Shown: in pieces, positions 21,575-26,527 of the stretch | Layout: every line of letters starts with the position of its first letter | Position numbering within the stretch: the stretch's first letter is position 1 | From: a virus | Lineage: Duplodnaviria; Caudoviricetes | Length of the DNA stretch: 59,445 nt | Direction: 5' to 3' (one strand) | IMG/VR virus record: IMGVR_UViG_3300017727_000011 | Location: 1 to 59,445 of that record | Notes under the pieces: model-generated | What the model was told of the DNA's origin: nothing | The model's database searches: none | Seen by the model: the letters and a program-made list of their open reading frames with translations, nothing else | Made by a program: the position numbers and the translations under genes

Positions 21575-22747
21575 TTATACCTTGGTTAAATCAAAAAGAT
21601 AAGCTTTTTTTCTACTCATTTTTTTAAAAAATTGTAAAAAATCCTCTTCAAATTGTACGAAGTTTTCACAAGGAAAAACAAATTTTGATTTGCTCCAATT
21701 AAAGATAAAAGGTCTTTTTAATTCTCTATCAGGATAGTTTTTTATTGATCGTACTTTATTGTTGAACTTTTCAAAAAGGTTAATCAATGTTTCAAACTTA
21801 CAAGCATCCTGACAATTAATTTTTTTAAATATTTCTGTATATTCTTTAAGAATACCTTTTGAATTATCTTTTTTTACTTCTTTTTTATTGGGCTTTTTCT
21901 TAGGTTTTATTTTGGGCTTTTCTTCGACTTCTTTATTTTCATCAGGTATTAAAAGTTTTGTATATTTATCAAAATATTTAAATATTCCTGACGCATTTTT
22001 TCCCAGACTTGTCATGTGTTCGCCCCTTGCTCTATCGTTTTGCACCACTTCTAAAAATATTTTTATGAAGTAATTTTTTAATTCTTGTAAACTTTTATGA
22101 TGTTTTGATTGAATAACTATTGGTGAAAAACTCCCACCAATGTTATATTCAAAATCAAAGACACCGACATATCTATCATTTATTAATGGAATATATTTTA
22201 TTTTAAAATCTACTTTCCATGTTTTTGGTATATCAAAAGATATTATTTCAGGGTTTATAATTGATAGTTCGTTATCATCTTTTTTATGATATTTTTCAGG
22301 TACTAAAAGCTCTATTAATCTTCTTTCTTCTTTTTGCCATTTCTCATAGTCGCTATTACTATTATCATATTCAAGGTTTGACGTGCTTTCTACTTTTGGA
22401 TCTATTATTGCGTCTTGGCTTTCCTCTTCTTCTTCCTCTTCCTCTTCTTCTTCTTCCTCTTCCTCTTCTTCTTTCTCTTCTTCTTCCTCTTCTTCAGCGA
22501 AATCTTTATAAACATTTGGATATTTTTTTCCTAATTGTTTATTTTCATATTCTTCAAGATTTTCTCTTTCTTCCTCGTTATCAGAATTAATTTTTTTAAA
22601 TAAATCTAAACTAGCTTGAGCAAGATTTTCTAAATCTGTGCTGATAGACTTAATTTCTTCTTTCAATTCAATAATGTCATCTTGGTTTTGACGTTGTATT
22701 TTTAAATATTTTACTTCCCTGATTACTTCTTGAATTGTTTTAGACAT
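21575..22747 (-). CDS. Hypothetical protein with poly-Glu tract
   Basis: Likely start MSKTIQ at 22747; E7-K-E17 tract. Confidence 0.7.
   Translation of the reverse strand: MSKTIQEVIREVKYLKIQRQNQDDIIELKEEIKSISTDLENLAQASLDLFKKINSDNEEERENLEEYENKQLGKKYPNVYKDFAEEEEEEEKEEEEEEEEEEEEEEEEESQDAIIDPKVESTSNLEYDNSNSDYEKWQKEERRLIELLVPEKYHKKDDNELSIINPEIISFDIPKTWKVDFKIKYIPLINDRYVGVFDFEYNIGGSFSPIVIQSKHHKSLQELKNYFIKIFLEVVQNDRARGEHMTSLGKNASGIFKYFDKYTKLLIPDENKEVEEKPKIKPKKKPNKKEVKKDNSKGILKEYTEIFKKINCQDACKFETLINLFEKFNNKVRSIKNYPDRELKRPFIFNWSKSKFVFPCENFVQFEEDFLQFFKKMSRKKAYLFDLTKV
22421..22495. repeat. (TTC/CTC)n trinucleotide run encoding poly-Glu
   Basis: 24 of 25 consecutive codons are GAA or GAG on the minus strand. 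Confidence 0.95.
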
Positions 22748-23342
22748 TTGCTTCCCACCTTTGAATTGCTTCATCCCAAAATTTCTTAGCCTCTATTTTA
22801 AAATAAGGTTCAAGCTGATTATTAAAAACATTTTTAATATTAGGATTATTGATTACATCCCACTCACTTCCGTCATGATATTTTTTAGTGCTTTGTTTAA
22901 TTTTAATAGAAATAGGATGTTTGCCATATCTATCCGTAAATTGATAATGAGGTTTACCAATTTTTATAATTTTCCATTTTACATAATCTCTTTTTCTAAA
23001 TGCATTACAAAAAACAAAATCACCAAGTTTAAAATTATTCTCAACAATAATTTGTTTTTCATCAAATCTATCAAATTCTCTAATAGGTTTTGAATAAGGT
23101 AATTCTTTAATATTTGGATTTTCTTTAAATGCTTTTTTATAAGCTTGTTCAAATAAAGTAAGGTCTAAAGCTTCTTCTAAATAAATCTTACCCATTACAT
23201 TGTTATTATTACTATCAACATATTTTGCAAAATAAGAAAATGGGCTTATTTTTTTGTAAATATCTAAGTAAACAACATCCATGCTAGGAACTTCTAACCA
23301 TGCGTTTTTTTGATCTGTGTATAAATTATAAGTTTTTTTCAT
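22740..23342 (-). CDS. Hypothetical early-region protein
   Basis: AGGGGAATAAAATG RBS; WLEV..ISPFSY..YLEE motif seen in phage early proteins. Confidence 0.7.
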   Translation of the reverse strand: MKKTYNLYTDQKNAWLEVPSMDVVYLDIYKKISPFSYFAKYVDSNNNNVMGKIYLEEALDLTLFEQAYKKAFKENPNIKELPYSKPIREFDRFDEKQIIVENNFKLGDFVFCNAFRKRDYVKWKIIKIGKPHYQFTDRYGKHPISIKIKQSTKKYHDGSEWDVINNPNIKNVFNNQLEPYFKIEAKKFWDEAIQRWEANV

Positions 23343-23402: not shown

Positions 23403-23657
23403 TTAATCAGATAAATCTCTAACTAAACTATAACAATCATGCTTTTCTAAAATATTAGCTACTTCAACTTGAGCGTCTTTTGATAAAGTTTCTTCTTGGA
23501 CTTCTTTTAATGCCATTATCCAATTATCGAGTTCTTGTAAGCAAAGGGTAAGATCAGCATGTTCTTTTACTATTAAATTCATAGCTGATTTATCGATAGG
23601 GGTTAATTCGATTTCATATCCTTCAGGCTTTCCATTTTCATTAATTATTGTTTTCAT
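23403..23657 (-). CDS. Hypothetical protein
   Basis: TAATG-coupled ORF. Confidence 0.65.
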   Translation of the reverse strand: MKTIINENGKPEGYEIELTPIDKSAMNLIVKEHADLTLCLQELDNWIMALKEVQEETLSKDAQVEVANILEKHDCYSLVRDLSD

Positions 23658-24538
23658 TATCTTAACTCCATTAATCCTTTAAGATCATCAACAAGTTCTG
23701 AAGATACAATAGAAAGAGATTTACCAATTTTTTCATTTAAAATTGTATGATTAAAATCGTTCCAAACTTTCTTAACATCATTAGTATCTTTACAAGTTTT
23801 TAAATACTCACGCATTTTTGTTAAATTTGTATAATGCTCTTCAAGAAGTTTTTTTACAGATAAATTTAAGTGTTCCTTTGTCTTCACATATTCTTTTAAG
23901 AAATTAAAATCCTTTTTTGTTTTAACCCTAAAATCTAACTTATGGCTACTTATATCTGGCACTTCAAAATAAAAAGGATTAGGAATTTTTTTATCATCAT
24001 AATAATACGAAAATACAACAGGGCAATTATTTCTAATCCATGTAGATACTTTATCACCCATATTACTATCGTTTCTTGGTTTTTGAAAACTATTAGGAAT
24101 ATTAGACGAAAAGACATTTAGACAAAAAGGATTTAAATCTTGTTGTAGTAATTCATCAAAATGCAATGCTACTGCCTGATCAGTTGATAAATTAAAATCC
24201 AAACATTTATCTGAATAATCAAAATGATAAGGCTTCATCACAGTTTTATTTCCAAGTGGATAGCTTTCCTTTTGTTCAACATCAAAAGTTGTTTTTGCAT
24301 AAAGATGACTTACTTTCGAAGTTGTTTTAAATTTTCTAAATGTTTCCAAATCAGAATGAGAGATTTGACCATACACCATATTGGTTGCTATTTGATATGC
24401 TTTAGTTCTATATGCTAAAAAATTACTAACTGCTACATCAAGTTTTTTTCTCATAGGTGTTTTTGTTTGTAAGACAATCTTAGACCATTCAGCTAAGATT
24501 TTATCTCTATGCTTGTTATTTATTTTAATTAAAGTCAT
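23657..24538 (-). CDS. Hypothetical protein
   Basis: 293 aa; AAGGAG RBS behind a sigma70-like promoter. Confidence 0.75.
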   Translation of the reverse strand: MTLIKINNKHRDKILAEWSKIVLQTKTPMRKKLDVAVSNFLAYRTKAYQIATNMVYGQISHSDLETFRKFKTTSKVSHLYAKTTFDVEQKESYPLGNKTVMKPYHFDYSDKCLDFNLSTDQAVALHFDELLQQDLNPFCLNVFSSNIPNSFQKPRNDSNMGDKVSTWIRNNCPVVFSYYYDDKKIPNPFYFEVPDISSHKLDFRVKTKKDFNFLKEYVKTKEHLNLSVKKLLEEHYTNLTKMREYLKTCKDTNDVKKVWNDFNHTILNEKIGKSLSIVSSELVDDLKGLMELR

Positions 24539-24562
24539 TTGATACTCCTTATCTTAATTAGT

Positions 24563-24598
24563 TGGGATATTATAACCAAAAAAATATCTAAAAGTCAA
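24563..24598 (-). promoter_or_regulatory. sigma70-like promoter with ATCCCA box
   Basis: TTGACT-18-TATAAT-ATCCCA. Confidence 0.7.
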
Positions 24599-24617
24599 TC
24601 TTGTAAATAAAGTTTTT

Positions 24618-25019
24618 AAAAAAATGAGGGAACGATTTACTATTAGGGGAATAAAAGTAAGGATAGGAATAAAAGTTATCAAACGCTCCCTCATTTCGTG
24701 ATCAAGGATTGTACTCTACTGCTCCGTCTACCAGCAGAATTTCGGATAAGCATACAACCCTAATGAAGAAAATCAGCTTACATATACCTCTGCCAAAATT
24801 CTTCACTTTCAATATGGCTTTGTTTATACCCACAAGGCTTGACTCCTTGGGACAGGAATAATTTAAACATTTTTCCCGTACTGAAACATGGTCTGGTGTT
24901 TCTTTTCTTGCCTGTACCATATAGAAACTTTTAGAAAGCGTAGGCAGTCCCATAGAGCAATCTATTGCCTGATCAATTACTTCAGGCTCAACTACTTTAG
25001 TCTGTTTTTCACTACGCAT
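24618..25019 (-). ncRNA. Candidate large structured non-coding RNA (family unknown)
   Basis: Own promoter, at least 9 stems, a possible pseudoknot, G-U pairs that work only on the minus strand, and a terminal hairpin plus U-run. Confidence 0.55.
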
Positions 25020-25025
25020 GATTAT

Positions 25026-25053
25026 AAGATAGTGAGATATATTAGGATGTCAA
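25026..25053 (-). promoter_or_regulatory. sigma70-like promoter for the candidate ncRNA
   Basis: TTGACA-16-TATCTT; spacer contains ATCCTA and ATCTCA; predicted start near 25019. Confidence 0.65.
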
Positions 25054-25064
25054 TACCCTAAAAT

Positions 25065-25096
25065 AAAAAAACCCCTGAAGTATTTATCAGGGGTTT
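25065..25096 (-). terminator. Intrinsic terminator
   Basis: AAACCCCTGA-loop-TCAGGGGTTT followed by a T-run. Confidence 0.8.
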
Positions 25097-25180
25097 ATGA
25101 GTGAAAGATCGTTATTTACTTTCTATTTCCAAAAAACAAAAAGTCAATTAGTTTTGCAAATTTTTCTATAAGCCAATTCA

Positions 25181-25378
25181 TTATCGTATCTCCTCTACTT
25201 CTTCAATTCTAAATTCTTCAATCTTTGATTTGTCAGCTTGTATTGATCTATCATTATTTTTATCAAAGTACATAGCTCCTTTATCTTCTATTTTTTTTCT
25301 AGCATCATCTTGTGTTTTTGCGTTTAATATAAAGGTTTTAGCATAAGCTTCATAAACTCTTACCTTATAAGTCGGCAT
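25181..25378 (-). CDS. Small hypothetical protein
   Basis: AGGAGAATAAAA RBS; YKVRV.E....I.A....A pattern common in phage early proteins. Confidence 0.7.
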   Translation of the reverse strand: MPTYKVRVYEAYAKTFILNAKTQDDARKKIEDKGAMYFDKNNDRSIQADKSKIEEFRIEEVEEIR

Positions 25379-25380
25379 TT

Positions 25381-25608
25381 TTATTCTCCTTTTAAAATTA
25401 GATTTGTTTGTAAATTTTCTAACTTACTCGCTATAGTGTCTGCAACATAAAATTCTACATCTGCGACTGTTTTGTTCATTACAAGGTCTTTAGTTTTATC
25501 AGCATTGTATTCATACAAAATTTCTTTTTTACTCGCCTCTGTAATTTGTTTTAATTGATCTTCCAATATTTTAGTAATTATGGAAAGTGATAGGTTATAA
25601 TTTTTCAT
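25381..25608 (-). CDS. Hypothetical protein
   Basis: Packed, co-oriented ORF. Confidence 0.65.
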   Translation of the reverse strand: MKNYNLSLSIITKILEDQLKQITEASKKEILYEYNADKTKDLVMNKTVADVEFYVADTIASKLENLQTNLILKGE

Positions 25609-25613
25609 TTTTA

Positions 25614-25889
25614 TTATCTCCTTACGGCAATATCAGGATTTTTCCTAATATAAGAAATTAACTTATCATAATATTTTATACATCTACGACCTGACGCAAT
25701 TATTTTTTGCTTATCTTCTAAAGAACTGTGATTATCTTTTTTAGCCCAATCTATAAAATCATATTTCATTTTTTTAAAATCCTCTAACATATCAATTCTT
25801 TGATTATGCCCTAAATAAGCTAGATCTTTAAATATCTTGCCTTGTCTTTTTAAGTAATGTGTATAAAAAATATTTTTTTTGTATTCCAT
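25614..25889 (-). CDS. Hypothetical protein
   Basis: Start MEYKK behind GAAGGAG. Confidence 0.65.
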   Translation of the reverse strand: MEYKKNIFYTHYLKRQGKIFKDLAYLGHNQRIDMLEDFKKMKYDFIDWAKKDNHSSLEDKQKIIASGRRCIKYYDKLISYIRKNPDIAVRR

Positions 25890-25890
25890 T

Positions 25891-26040
25891 TTATGTCTCT
25901 CCTTCTTTTTCATCAACAAGTTCTTCTAAAACTGTATAAGCCTCTCTAATATTTTCATCTTCTTCTGTATCAAGATAATTATTAGCTTTCCATAATTCAA
26001 AATTTTTATAAAAAACTTCTAATGCTTCTTTAGCTTTCAT
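25891..26040 (-). CDS. Small acidic protein (49 aa, not in ORF track)
   Basis: MKAKEALEVFYKNFELW...VDEKEGET; AGGAGG RBS. Confidence 0.65.
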   Translation of the reverse strand: MKAKEALEVFYKNFELWKANNYLDTEEDENIREAYTVLEELVDEKEGET

Positions 26041-26248
26041 AACTTAGTCCTCCTGGGCAAACTTTTTTTACTTGAAAATACCAATCTAAATATTGCTCAT
26101 AATATAATTTATTTAATATTTTTCGATCATAAGAATTACCTCTACAGTCATAAAGAGGTATGTTCCATTTTGTATTAAACTCATCATCAGTTTTAAGAAA
26201 ATGTTTGAAGGTTTTCCAAGCCTGTCTATCAATCTTTACTATCTTCAT
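26030..26248 (-). CDS. Hypothetical protein
   Basis: Packed, co-oriented ORF. Confidence 0.6.
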   Translation of the reverse strand: MKIVKIDRQAWKTFKHFLKTDDEFNTKWNIPLYDCRGNSYDRKILNKLYYEQYLDWYFQVKKVCPGGLSYES

Positions 26249-26459
26249 TTGTATCCCCCCAATCTATACCCACTTCACAAAAAGAAACTCCAAAAGGATA
26301 GTTATCTAAAAATGGTTTATAATTATTGATGTCATAACCCATGGCTTCATAGGTCTCTATCGCAGTCCTTAATCTTTCAAGTGCTTTGTTTACTTCTTGT
26401 ATTGTATTTAAAACGTTAAGCTCTTTTTCAAGTTTTAGTATATGTGTATGTAGTTCCAT
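26229..26459 (-). CDS. Hypothetical protein
   Basis: Start MELH behind GAAGGAGAG. Confidence 0.65.
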   Translation of the reverse strand: MELHTHILKLEKELNVLNTIQEVNKALERLRTAIETYEAMGYDINNYKPFLDNYPFGVSFCEVGIDWGDTNEDSKD

Positions 26460-26497
26460 TGTTCTCTCCTTCACTTGCCAAAGTGCAATTAAAAAAG

Positions 26498-26527
26498 AAT
26501 ATATTACAACTTATTGGGATTTGTCAA
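26498..26527 (-). promoter_or_regulatory. sigma70-like promoter with ATCCCA box
   Basis: TTGACA-18-TATATT, with ATCCCA in the spacer. Confidence 0.6.

Follow-up and report, generated by a model that had tools for sequence, protein, structure and literature searches.

A family of structured noncoding RNAs in marine phages, carried in one viral genome as a promoter-RNA-terminator unit

The window analyzed here is the complete viral record IMGVR_UViG_3300017727_000011 (Duplodnaviria; Caudoviricetes), 59,445 bp long at ~27% guanine-cytosine (GC) content, and positions 24618-25019 of its minus strand hold a noncoding RNA gene that lacks an open reading frame (ORF) as its product and consists of its own promoter, four folded modules, and a hairpin with a U-run. 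We read this unit as one without a protein gene, since it opens at its own host-type promoter and then ends at the hairpin and U-run. Comparison with related sequences indicates that the core of the RNA belongs to a family of ~110-nt structured RNAs of marine phages, folded and under selection, and we consider it almost certain that this is a genuine family of structured noncoding RNAs. An earlier reading, made from the letters of the window alone (the sequence-only reading), had proposed a structured noncoding phage RNA with its own promoter and terminator at this place, and the proposal is borne out by covariation, by an overlapping ORF that is not conserved, and by contigs from RNA libraries that fall on the unit.

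Wide conservation is confined to ~117 nt of the ~400-nt unit. This core has the following parts, of which the sequence-only reading had overlooked P1 and P2, as well as the restriction of wide conservation to this segment:

24809-24925, minus strand: core motif, a four-way junction, as matched by the covariance model
24922-24916 paired with 24818-24812, minus strand: helix P1
24915-24903, minus strand: junction strand J1/2
24902-24897 paired with 24888-24883, minus strand: helix P2
24879-24873 paired with 24858-24852, minus strand: helix P3
24851-24845 paired with 24837-24829, minus strand: helix P4, with a GU bulge inside
24828-24819, minus strand: junction strand J4/1

The covariance model, R1, matches the window in a single copy over its full length (model positions 1-112; 58.8 bits, E = 9e-10), and the minimum-energy fold of the core piece alone yields P1-P4. 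The window core has the P1-P4 junction of the family and its sequence signatures, which are the GAAAA of J1/2, the block from P3' to P4, and the UAUAAA of J4/1. Across the family, P1 is 7-14 bp long and freely variable in sequence, J1/2 ends in GAAAA, and J4/1 begins with UAUAAA and leads into the 3' strand of P1. P2 is the variable point of insertion, ranging from a short hairpin up to an insert of >100 nt, and P3 directly abuts P4, which carries the conserved GU bulge. The junction strands and P3/P4 are nearly invariant, the invariance of P3/P4 being partly imposed by the fixed letters of our search patterns, and the ~40 nt from P3' to J4/1 are near-invariant, again partly owing to these patterns, in phages whose terS and terL proteins share only 31-70% identity.

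Covariation among homologues, a comparison that the sequence-only reading had itself proposed, supports the fold. In 76 distinct sequences, 97.8% of cells are paired and compensatory changes occur in 15/25 pairs (9/10 in P1, 3/3 in P2, 1/5 in P3, and 2/7 in P4), with a covariation score of 0.435 against 0.119 in shuffles, a value reached by 0/500 of them. When the partners are slid by 1-3 columns, only ~40% of cells pair. An alignment fitted to a model is biased toward the structure; RNAalifold, applied to a plain MAFFT alignment to which no model had been fitted, recovered P1, P3, and P4 independently. As an example, the third pair of P3 occurs as A-U (61 sequences), G-U (9), G-C (5), and U-A (1). 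The U-G pair that closes P1 is retained in 69/76 distinct sequences, and the earlier claim that mismatches become G-U pairs on the minus strand alone was found to be correct.

Across the family, a pseudoknot joins J1/2 to the loop of P3, and the two are complementary in at least six sequence versions (UCUG/CAGA, GCCG/CGGC, UUGAC/GUCAA, AAGAC/GUCUU, AGGGU/AUCCU, and UGAC/GUCA). Cognate combinations have a mean duplex energy of -5.3 kcal/mol, compared with -2.2 for non-cognate ones. In the commonest register, compensatory changes are seen in 4/4 pairs (score 0.495 versus 0.141, reached by 0/500 shuffles), and only 74% of pseudoknot cells pair because other subtypes use shifted registers.

These results change the set of stems that had been read from the window by eye. 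The promoter, terminators, and GC contrast of the sequence-only reading were recovered, together with several of its stems: 24938-43/25012-17, 24967-72/24982-87, and 24719-23/24733-37 are present in the computed folds, 24852-58/24873-79 is P3, and 24833-37/24845-49 is the inner part of P4. Its two crossing stems (24888-92/24916-20 and 24898-903/24923-28) and three further stems did not stand. Three of these five were discarded since they take up bases needed by the covarying P1 and P2: the bases of the crossing stems belong to these two helices, and 24792-95/24815-18 uses bases that covariation gives to P1. The second crossing stem also lies partly in a ~99-nt segment missing from the near-identical locus L010. 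The remaining two, 24952-56/24961-65 and 24747-51/24776-80, fall outside the minimum-energy folds.

The family was assembled stepwise from a single cultured relative. A blastn search against cultured phages gave one match, to an unannotated 140-nt gap between gp07 and gp08 of Pelagibacter phage HTVC115P, where 52 nt common to the window and this phage form two hairpins whose base changes preserve pairing. No other carrier was found among cultured phages with two blastn queries, and others may exist, as the 110-nt query is a weak probe. A pattern drawn from the two hairpins found 47 IMG/VR loci, a looser one 56, and a pattern leaving P3 free at least 120 metagenome loci. Model R1, built after chance and unrelated matches had been set aside, gave 54 matches and later at least 85, at least 76 of them distinct, so that the motif is now seen in at least 76 distinct sequences from marine viral and metagenome contigs and HTVC115P.

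Several pattern matches were discarded on the way. Six loci (L038, L097, L100, and L103-L105) are chance matches that model R1 does not match, and ~35 of the at least 120 metagenome matches listed belong to an unrelated conserved stretch from gut and other assemblies, with a few more that look like chance; the unrelated ones were removed by demanding the P3 pattern before the model search. The unrelated, highly conserved stretch matched by the pattern (…GAUGAUCUCCCGAAGGAAAAUCUCCUUGUGGGUAUAAAUGGAG…; L114, L117, L120, L127, L134, and ~30 more) is probably coding. Among 185,579 species genomes, the 45 pattern matches also look like chance, mostly lying in coding context with no P3 upstream. L080, from a Pelagibacter genome and the sole cellular pattern match tested with the model, gave no match, and the motif was found in 0/151 genomes of the Pelagibacter order, an empty result that carries little weight for this search.

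The unit overlaps one frame long enough to have been a gene:

24702-25019, minus strand: 105-codon open frame, a chance ORF and not a gene

Had this frame been translated, the transcript would be a leaderless mRNA for a 105-aa protein, with its ATG where transcription is predicted to begin. Both the window and locus L044 keep the frame open, at 98% identity over 105/105 residues. Against this, L010 lacks ~99 nt (window positions 25021-24923), including the ATG and the first third of the frame, and is ~97% identical in the shared part; no purine-rich ribosome-binding site precedes the ATG, and the 105-codon ORF has no Pfam match. Stops interrupt all three forward frames in 36/40 distinct motif sequences, including the window-type L014, and substitutions preserve helices rather than codons. 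The outcome that the sequence-only reading had named as fatal to its proposal, a reading frame conserved in place of the stems, is the reverse of what homologues show, and we consider a leaderless mRNA very improbable.

Nor does the RNA match a catalogued family. Across the whole window, none of the 4227 models of Rfam 15 matched at gathering score, and at E ≤ 10 within 24450-25200 nothing overlapped the motif on its own strand, the single overlap being a 14-bit snoRNA match on the opposite strand. Rfam likewise gave no match at E ≤ 1 to the motif in 7 loci of other subtypes, and none at gathering score in 11 further loci. ARAGORN found no tRNA or tmRNA genes in the window or in 29 related loci, and no tRNA clusters lie beside the motif in these 29 loci. 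The earlier judgment that this is not a tRNA, tmRNA, or intron therefore agrees with the absence of any Rfam, tRNA, or tmRNA match.

Around the core, the unit is built from accessory modules and bounded by transcription signals, all of them on the minus strand:

25069-25096, minus strand: intrinsic terminator, a 10-bp stem with 5 GC pairs followed by a U-run
25026-25053, minus strand: sigma70-type promoter TTGACA-16-TATCTT, matching 10/12 consensus positions, with a predicted start at ~25019
24923-25021, minus strand: 5' domain of ~99 nt, with closing stem 25017-25012/24943-24938 around hairpin 24987-82/24972-67 (fold z = -2.5)
24762-24807, minus strand: hairpin A of the 3' extension, with outer stem 24807-24799/24770-24762 and inner stem 24796-24792/24777-24773
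24705-24761, minus strand: middle 3' module, with stem 24761-24752/24714-24705 around hairpin 24738-32/24721-15
24618-24697, minus strand: terminal hairpin, with stem 24697-24684/24634-24621, a ~48-nt loop, and a U-run at 24624-24618 (z = -5.4)
24569-24598, minus strand: separate promoter TTGACT-18-TATAAT, matching 11/12 consensus positions, which serves the next gene block (24538 downward)

The terminator at 25069-25096, the sole canonical terminator-like site found by a scan of 23500-26500, appears to close the upstream gene block and insulate the RNA unit. GC content is 0.35-0.395 across 24600-24999, compared with ~0.23-0.30 in most flanking windows. The minus strand of the 402-nt unit folds at -107.8 kcal/mol, better than its shuffled controls (-91.4 ± 6.1; z = -2.7; 0/100 shuffles equal), whereas the plus strand of the same 402 nt reaches z = -1.5, with 6/100 shuffles as good. 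Piecewise folds gave z = -2.5 for the 5' domain, -2.1 for the core, -3.0 for the 3' domain, and -5.4 for the terminal hairpin.

The modules differ in how far they extend beyond the window. The 5' domain is lineage-specific, missing in L010 and present in L044, and its closing stem recurs in L228 and L125 around a different module; it is a closing stem around a swappable insert. In L010, a promoter TTGACA-16-TATATT lies 5 nt before the motif and abuts P1. Hairpin A is common to the more distant L228 and L125, where changes in the inner stem turn U-G into U-A and G-U into G-C, and the middle 3' module is seen only in near-identical relatives (L010, L044, L151, and L165) and is absent from L228. 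The terminal hairpin, in which one G-U pair becomes A-U in L010, is likely the 3' end of the RNA. Its stem recurs in L228 and L125, there with no U-run after it, and L228 carries a small Zn-ribbon-like ORF (two CxxC pairs) between the homologue of the terminal hairpin and the next promoter, where the window has only the U-run.

Other noncoding modules were seen near the motif in relatives. A second conserved module consists of CCAAACACCCA, a hairpin, GAG(R)GG..UGGU, and then GUUAGUGUUUG; it lies upstream of the motif in L228 and L125 and downstream in L011 and L014, and its sequence suggests a long-range CAAACAC/GUGUUUG pairing. A scan of the L011 locus gave no Rfam match to it. A third recurring block starts with CAGUUCGAUGACACUGCGAG and ends with GUCAUCAUCUAUCGGCGGUAGA, lying downstream of the core at a varying distance in L011 and L013, and its start is also seen in L116, L118, L153, L163, L168, and L194. 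Finally, L028 and L096 have ~100 nt of common noncoding sequence after the motif, starting with GUUUAGUAGUAGGCAUAAAUAUAACAGG and with an apparent closing stem UAGUAG.../...CUACUA.

Sequence from the unit is found in RNA libraries. Six metatranscriptome runs contain 6-10% of the sampled words of a 2.8-kb stretch, and contigs of four RNA libraries from four studies cover 24694-25010 (317 nt), 24652-24979 (322 nt), 24687-24921, and 24630-24921. The 5' domain is covered by contigs X15 and X16, and the last two of the four intervals come from a variant with another 5' module, as the sequence 5' of P1 differs. One more contig, of 157 nt, lies at 26024-26180; apart from this piece, the flanks (23600-24629 and 25011-26400) gave no contig in four runs, which we do not take as evidence for a discrete transcript.

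The neighboring genes place the unit between two blocks of the genome. Nearly all genes of the window are on the minus strand, and the landmarks are:

30388-28511, minus strand: DNA polymerase
27032-26511, minus strand: small-terminase-like gene (terS), with small ORFs after it
17902-16439, minus strand: large terminase (terL)
15129-12772, minus strand: portal gene

Read along the minus strand, the order is DNA polymerase, the terS-like gene, small ORFs, terminator, RNA unit (24618-25019), second promoter, unknown genes, terL, and portal, so that the RNA lies between the replication block (DNA polymerase/terS) and the block leading to terL and portal. The sequence-only reading had spoken of an undescribed phage RNA in the early region; undescribed it is, as far as Rfam 15 and our text searches go, but its position between the replication block and the block leading to packaging does not make it early. 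Two further ORFs on the minus strand were noted in passing. One, of ~20 codons at 25118-25180 (MNWLIEKFAKLIDFLFFGNRK), covers the stop codon of the gene before it and runs almost up to the upstream terminator, and the other, at 21575-22774, encodes 399 aa with a run of ~35 glutamates (one lysine) and lysine-rich stretches, and has no PHROG or Pfam match.

In relatives, the motif is closely linked to promoters. In 38/65 distinct upstream regions, the motif is preceded by a TTGAC[AT] hexamer whose first base lies 28-46 nt (mode 34) away, compared with 63/4250 random segments; this stricter -35 count supersedes a relaxed promoter scoring (29/35 regions versus 467/2160 random segments). In the other upstream regions the hexamers are weaker, additional RNA lies 5' of the motif, or no promoter can be seen, as in HTVC115P. 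The commonest phage type has DNA polymerase, terS, promoter and motif, small variable genes, and then terL at +3.7-4.3 kb, and in other phage types the motif precedes a primase/DNA-polymerase block or belongs to a divergent arrangement. In 7/22 loci examined, all 7 of the majority type, the stretch leading to terL contains strong terminators on the same strand, 2.1-3.3 kb past the motif, and promoter-like sites follow them. Given the promoter link, the gene order, and these downstream terminators and promoters, the motif usually heads an insulated unit, and in the window this unit is reduced to the RNA alone. The window, L010, and L044 all have promoter, RNA, and terminator with no gene inside, and a next block with its own promoter.

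Six loci (L003, L005, L021, L024, L034, and L039) show a further conserved element at 2.1-3.5 kb past the motif: behind strong terminators comes a conserved noncoding stretch of 150-250 nt (e.g., ACAACAUCUAGGUACUUA), which ends in a TTTACA...TATGAT promoter-like site shortly before terL.

As to function, we lean, with somewhat less than even confidence, toward a stand-alone RNA product that binds a conserved host component. In this view, a strong sigma70-type promoter would yield the folded RNA as a stable molecule, transcribed on its own in the window and, in most relatives, forming the 5' portion of mRNAs that encode small variable genes; its effect would come from binding a conserved host component and not from regulating any single gene downstream. 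An RNA product is the simplest reading because the window and its close relatives keep a gene-less promoter-RNA-terminator unit, with the next block having its own promoter. The motif is single-copy (one per genome in 5 whole records searched, as well as in the window), often promoter-linked, and not gene-specific; a single copy, no constant protein neighbor, varied first genes, and the near-invariance from P3' to J4/1 all support an RNA product.

Several points weigh against this reading. Action in trans on some host partner or target would have to be supposed. About half of the contexts are a plain 5' untranslated region (UTR) with a start codon 14-37 nt later, where a role in cis fits equally well or better, and the tight promoter link (38/65 versus 63/4250) is also compatible with a role during transcription or at the 5' end. 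The RNA libraries contribute assembled contigs, which show the sequence to be present in the libraries without giving ends, strand, or abundance. In the window subtype (20/85 matches), moreover, the pseudoknot is weak, being either ACA/UGU (3 Watson-Crick pairs) or AGGCA/UGUUU (5 pairs, two of them G-U), and its cognate duplex, at -2.2 kcal/mol, ranks 5th of 8 in its row.

The position of the motif would also suit a cis-acting leader for processive antitermination of the kind known from put (HK022) and EAR (Bacillus), in which the nascent RNA stays on the host RNA polymerase and lets it pass downstream terminators. The motif is promoter-proximal in the 38/65 upstream regions, occurs once per genome at the head of a long co-directional gene array, and is tied to no gene family, and such a leader needs no expression platform. 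Like a put- or EAR-type RNA, it lies upstream of terminators: in the window, a hairpin and U-run follow it ahead of co-directional genes, and strong same-strand terminators are found in the 7/22 loci described above. However, read-through is not needed, as the blocks that follow are served by promoters of their own (at 24598-24569 in the window, with promoter-like sites in relatives), and HTVC115P and several other loci lack a promoter ahead of the motif. The motif matches no Rfam family, among which we presume EAR to be counted, and the RNA-library contigs stop before passing the terminal hairpin, an observation from contigs that cannot prove absence. On balance, we consider antitermination unlikely, at about half the weight that we give to a stand-alone product.

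The downstream side of the motif bears on two other explanations. A start codon follows within 37 nt in 21/44 distinct contexts, and in the other 23/44 it is 59-998 nt away, across noncoding sequence. A compact knotted fold at or near the 5' terminus might protect the transcript from 5'-end-dependent RNases or support its translation, as do 5' stabilizer hairpins and exonuclease-resistant RNAs. In many loci, P1 begins within a few nucleotides of where transcription is predicted to start, the pseudoknot strand in J1/2 comes directly after the 5' strand of P1, and an A-rich spacer and strong ribosome-binding site follow directly in the 21/44 contexts. Yet the units of the window, L010, and L044 hold no gene to protect, several subtypes carry an extra 50-130 nt of RNA 5' of P1, and a simple hairpin would suffice, whereas the near-invariant junction points to specific recognition. 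We regard a protective or translation-supporting leader as improbable.

The motif might also be a riboswitch aptamer, sensing a host metabolite or signal and tuning the transcription unit behind it. A four-way junction with a pseudoknot, conserved unpaired junction nucleotides, a covarying outermost P1, and a variable P2 are typical of aptamers, many loci have the motif in a 5' UTR, and in the window a terminator follows. Against this, there is no consistent association with a gene family: the first downstream genes belong to many unrelated families, and no protein cluster within ±4 kb is constantly adjacent across subtypes. Inspection by eye found no terminator stem between P1 and the start codon in the 21/44 contexts, where the ribosome-binding site lies outside all conserved helices, and no conserved anti-Shine-Dalgarno pairing or antiterminator. 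The window has ~110 nt of other modules between P1 and the terminator, followed by a fresh promoter, and the motif was not found in cellular genomes (0/151 of the Pelagibacter order, with the 45 pattern matches elsewhere chance-like). A riboswitch thus appears slightly less probable even than a protective leader.

It is possible, though rather less likely than not, that this is a new phage RNA class acting on host core machinery, made early and at a high level to ride on and reprogram the host RNA polymerase or to sequester a conserved RNA-binding factor, and that its modular partner RNAs make up an RNA "toolkit" locus of a kind not seen before. Pelagiphages and related phages count among Earth's most numerous viruses, with functions assigned to only a minority of their genes and little known of how they are regulated. 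The carriers of the motif include relatives of HMO-2011/HTVC103P-type phages of SAR11-like hosts, which are among the most abundant viruses of the surface ocean. Because the fold recurs in many phages, often heads a transcription unit, and appears in contigs of ocean RNA libraries, it offers a concrete handle on the control of phage infection, and with the carrier HTVC115P in culture on Pelagibacter HTCC7211, the RNA is directly testable. Binding to RNA polymerase, to an RNase, or to a small molecule, if it occurs, would make this a new entry in a short list of natural RNA classes.

What is new here is the RNA family, which is unrelated to any catalogued Rfam 15 family, and not a mechanism. 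Text searches of the literature, including searches with motif strings, found no description of the RNA, the strings giving only unrelated primer-type matches, and the accessible part of the bioRxiv paper on HTVC115P does not describe the motif. A 2023 catalogue of structured RNAs from IMG/VR reports 8495 unnamed "DNAVirus_N" candidates of 29-151 nt (PMC10690425), and our motif resembles them in its intergenic IMG/VR source, size range, and covariation evidence, going by the portion of that paper at hand. The main text, to the same extent, contains no description of the motif, which may be listed among the 8495 without a name (PMC10690425).

Among large orphan structured RNAs, GOLLD and ROOL are often carried by phages (10.1101/2024.12.08.627333, as far as its accessible text goes) and, on the same partial basis, share with our RNA a conserved ornate fold, a function that is not known, and modular accessory domains. 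They differ in that the core of the motif is only ~110 nt, the Rfam models do not match it, and the 29 loci hold 0 tRNA genes.

In its architecture, the motif resembles SAM-I, a riboswitch aptamer built on a four-way junction with a pseudoknot: both have P1 as the outer helix, one stem that varies, conserved nucleotides in the junction, and a pseudoknot between loop and junction. It differs from SAM-I-type RNAs in that it has no Rfam riboswitch match or gene-family association, shows no conserved expression platform on inspection by eye, and was not found in the cellular genomes searched. The pRNA of phi29 is a stand-alone phage RNA with a multi-helix junction whose loops pair between molecules to form a ring on the portal for packaging. 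Both are phage-encoded junction RNAs with covarying loop complementarity, and terS and terL flank the motif in most relatives. However, the motif has no Rfam match and is often fused to an mRNA, other phage types place it before the primase/DNA-polymerase block, and covariation does not distinguish intramolecular from intermolecular pairing.

Finally, put of phage HK022 and EAR of Bacillus eps operons are processive antitermination RNAs, structured, ~70-120 nt long, and placed early in the nascent transcript. Our motif is a four-way junction with a pseudoknot and not two hairpins, it matches no Rfam model, and the blocks downstream of it have their own promoters. Like put and EAR, it is a structured RNA early in the transcript, indifferent to the identity of the downstream gene and with terminators farther downstream, and put is likewise phage-borne.

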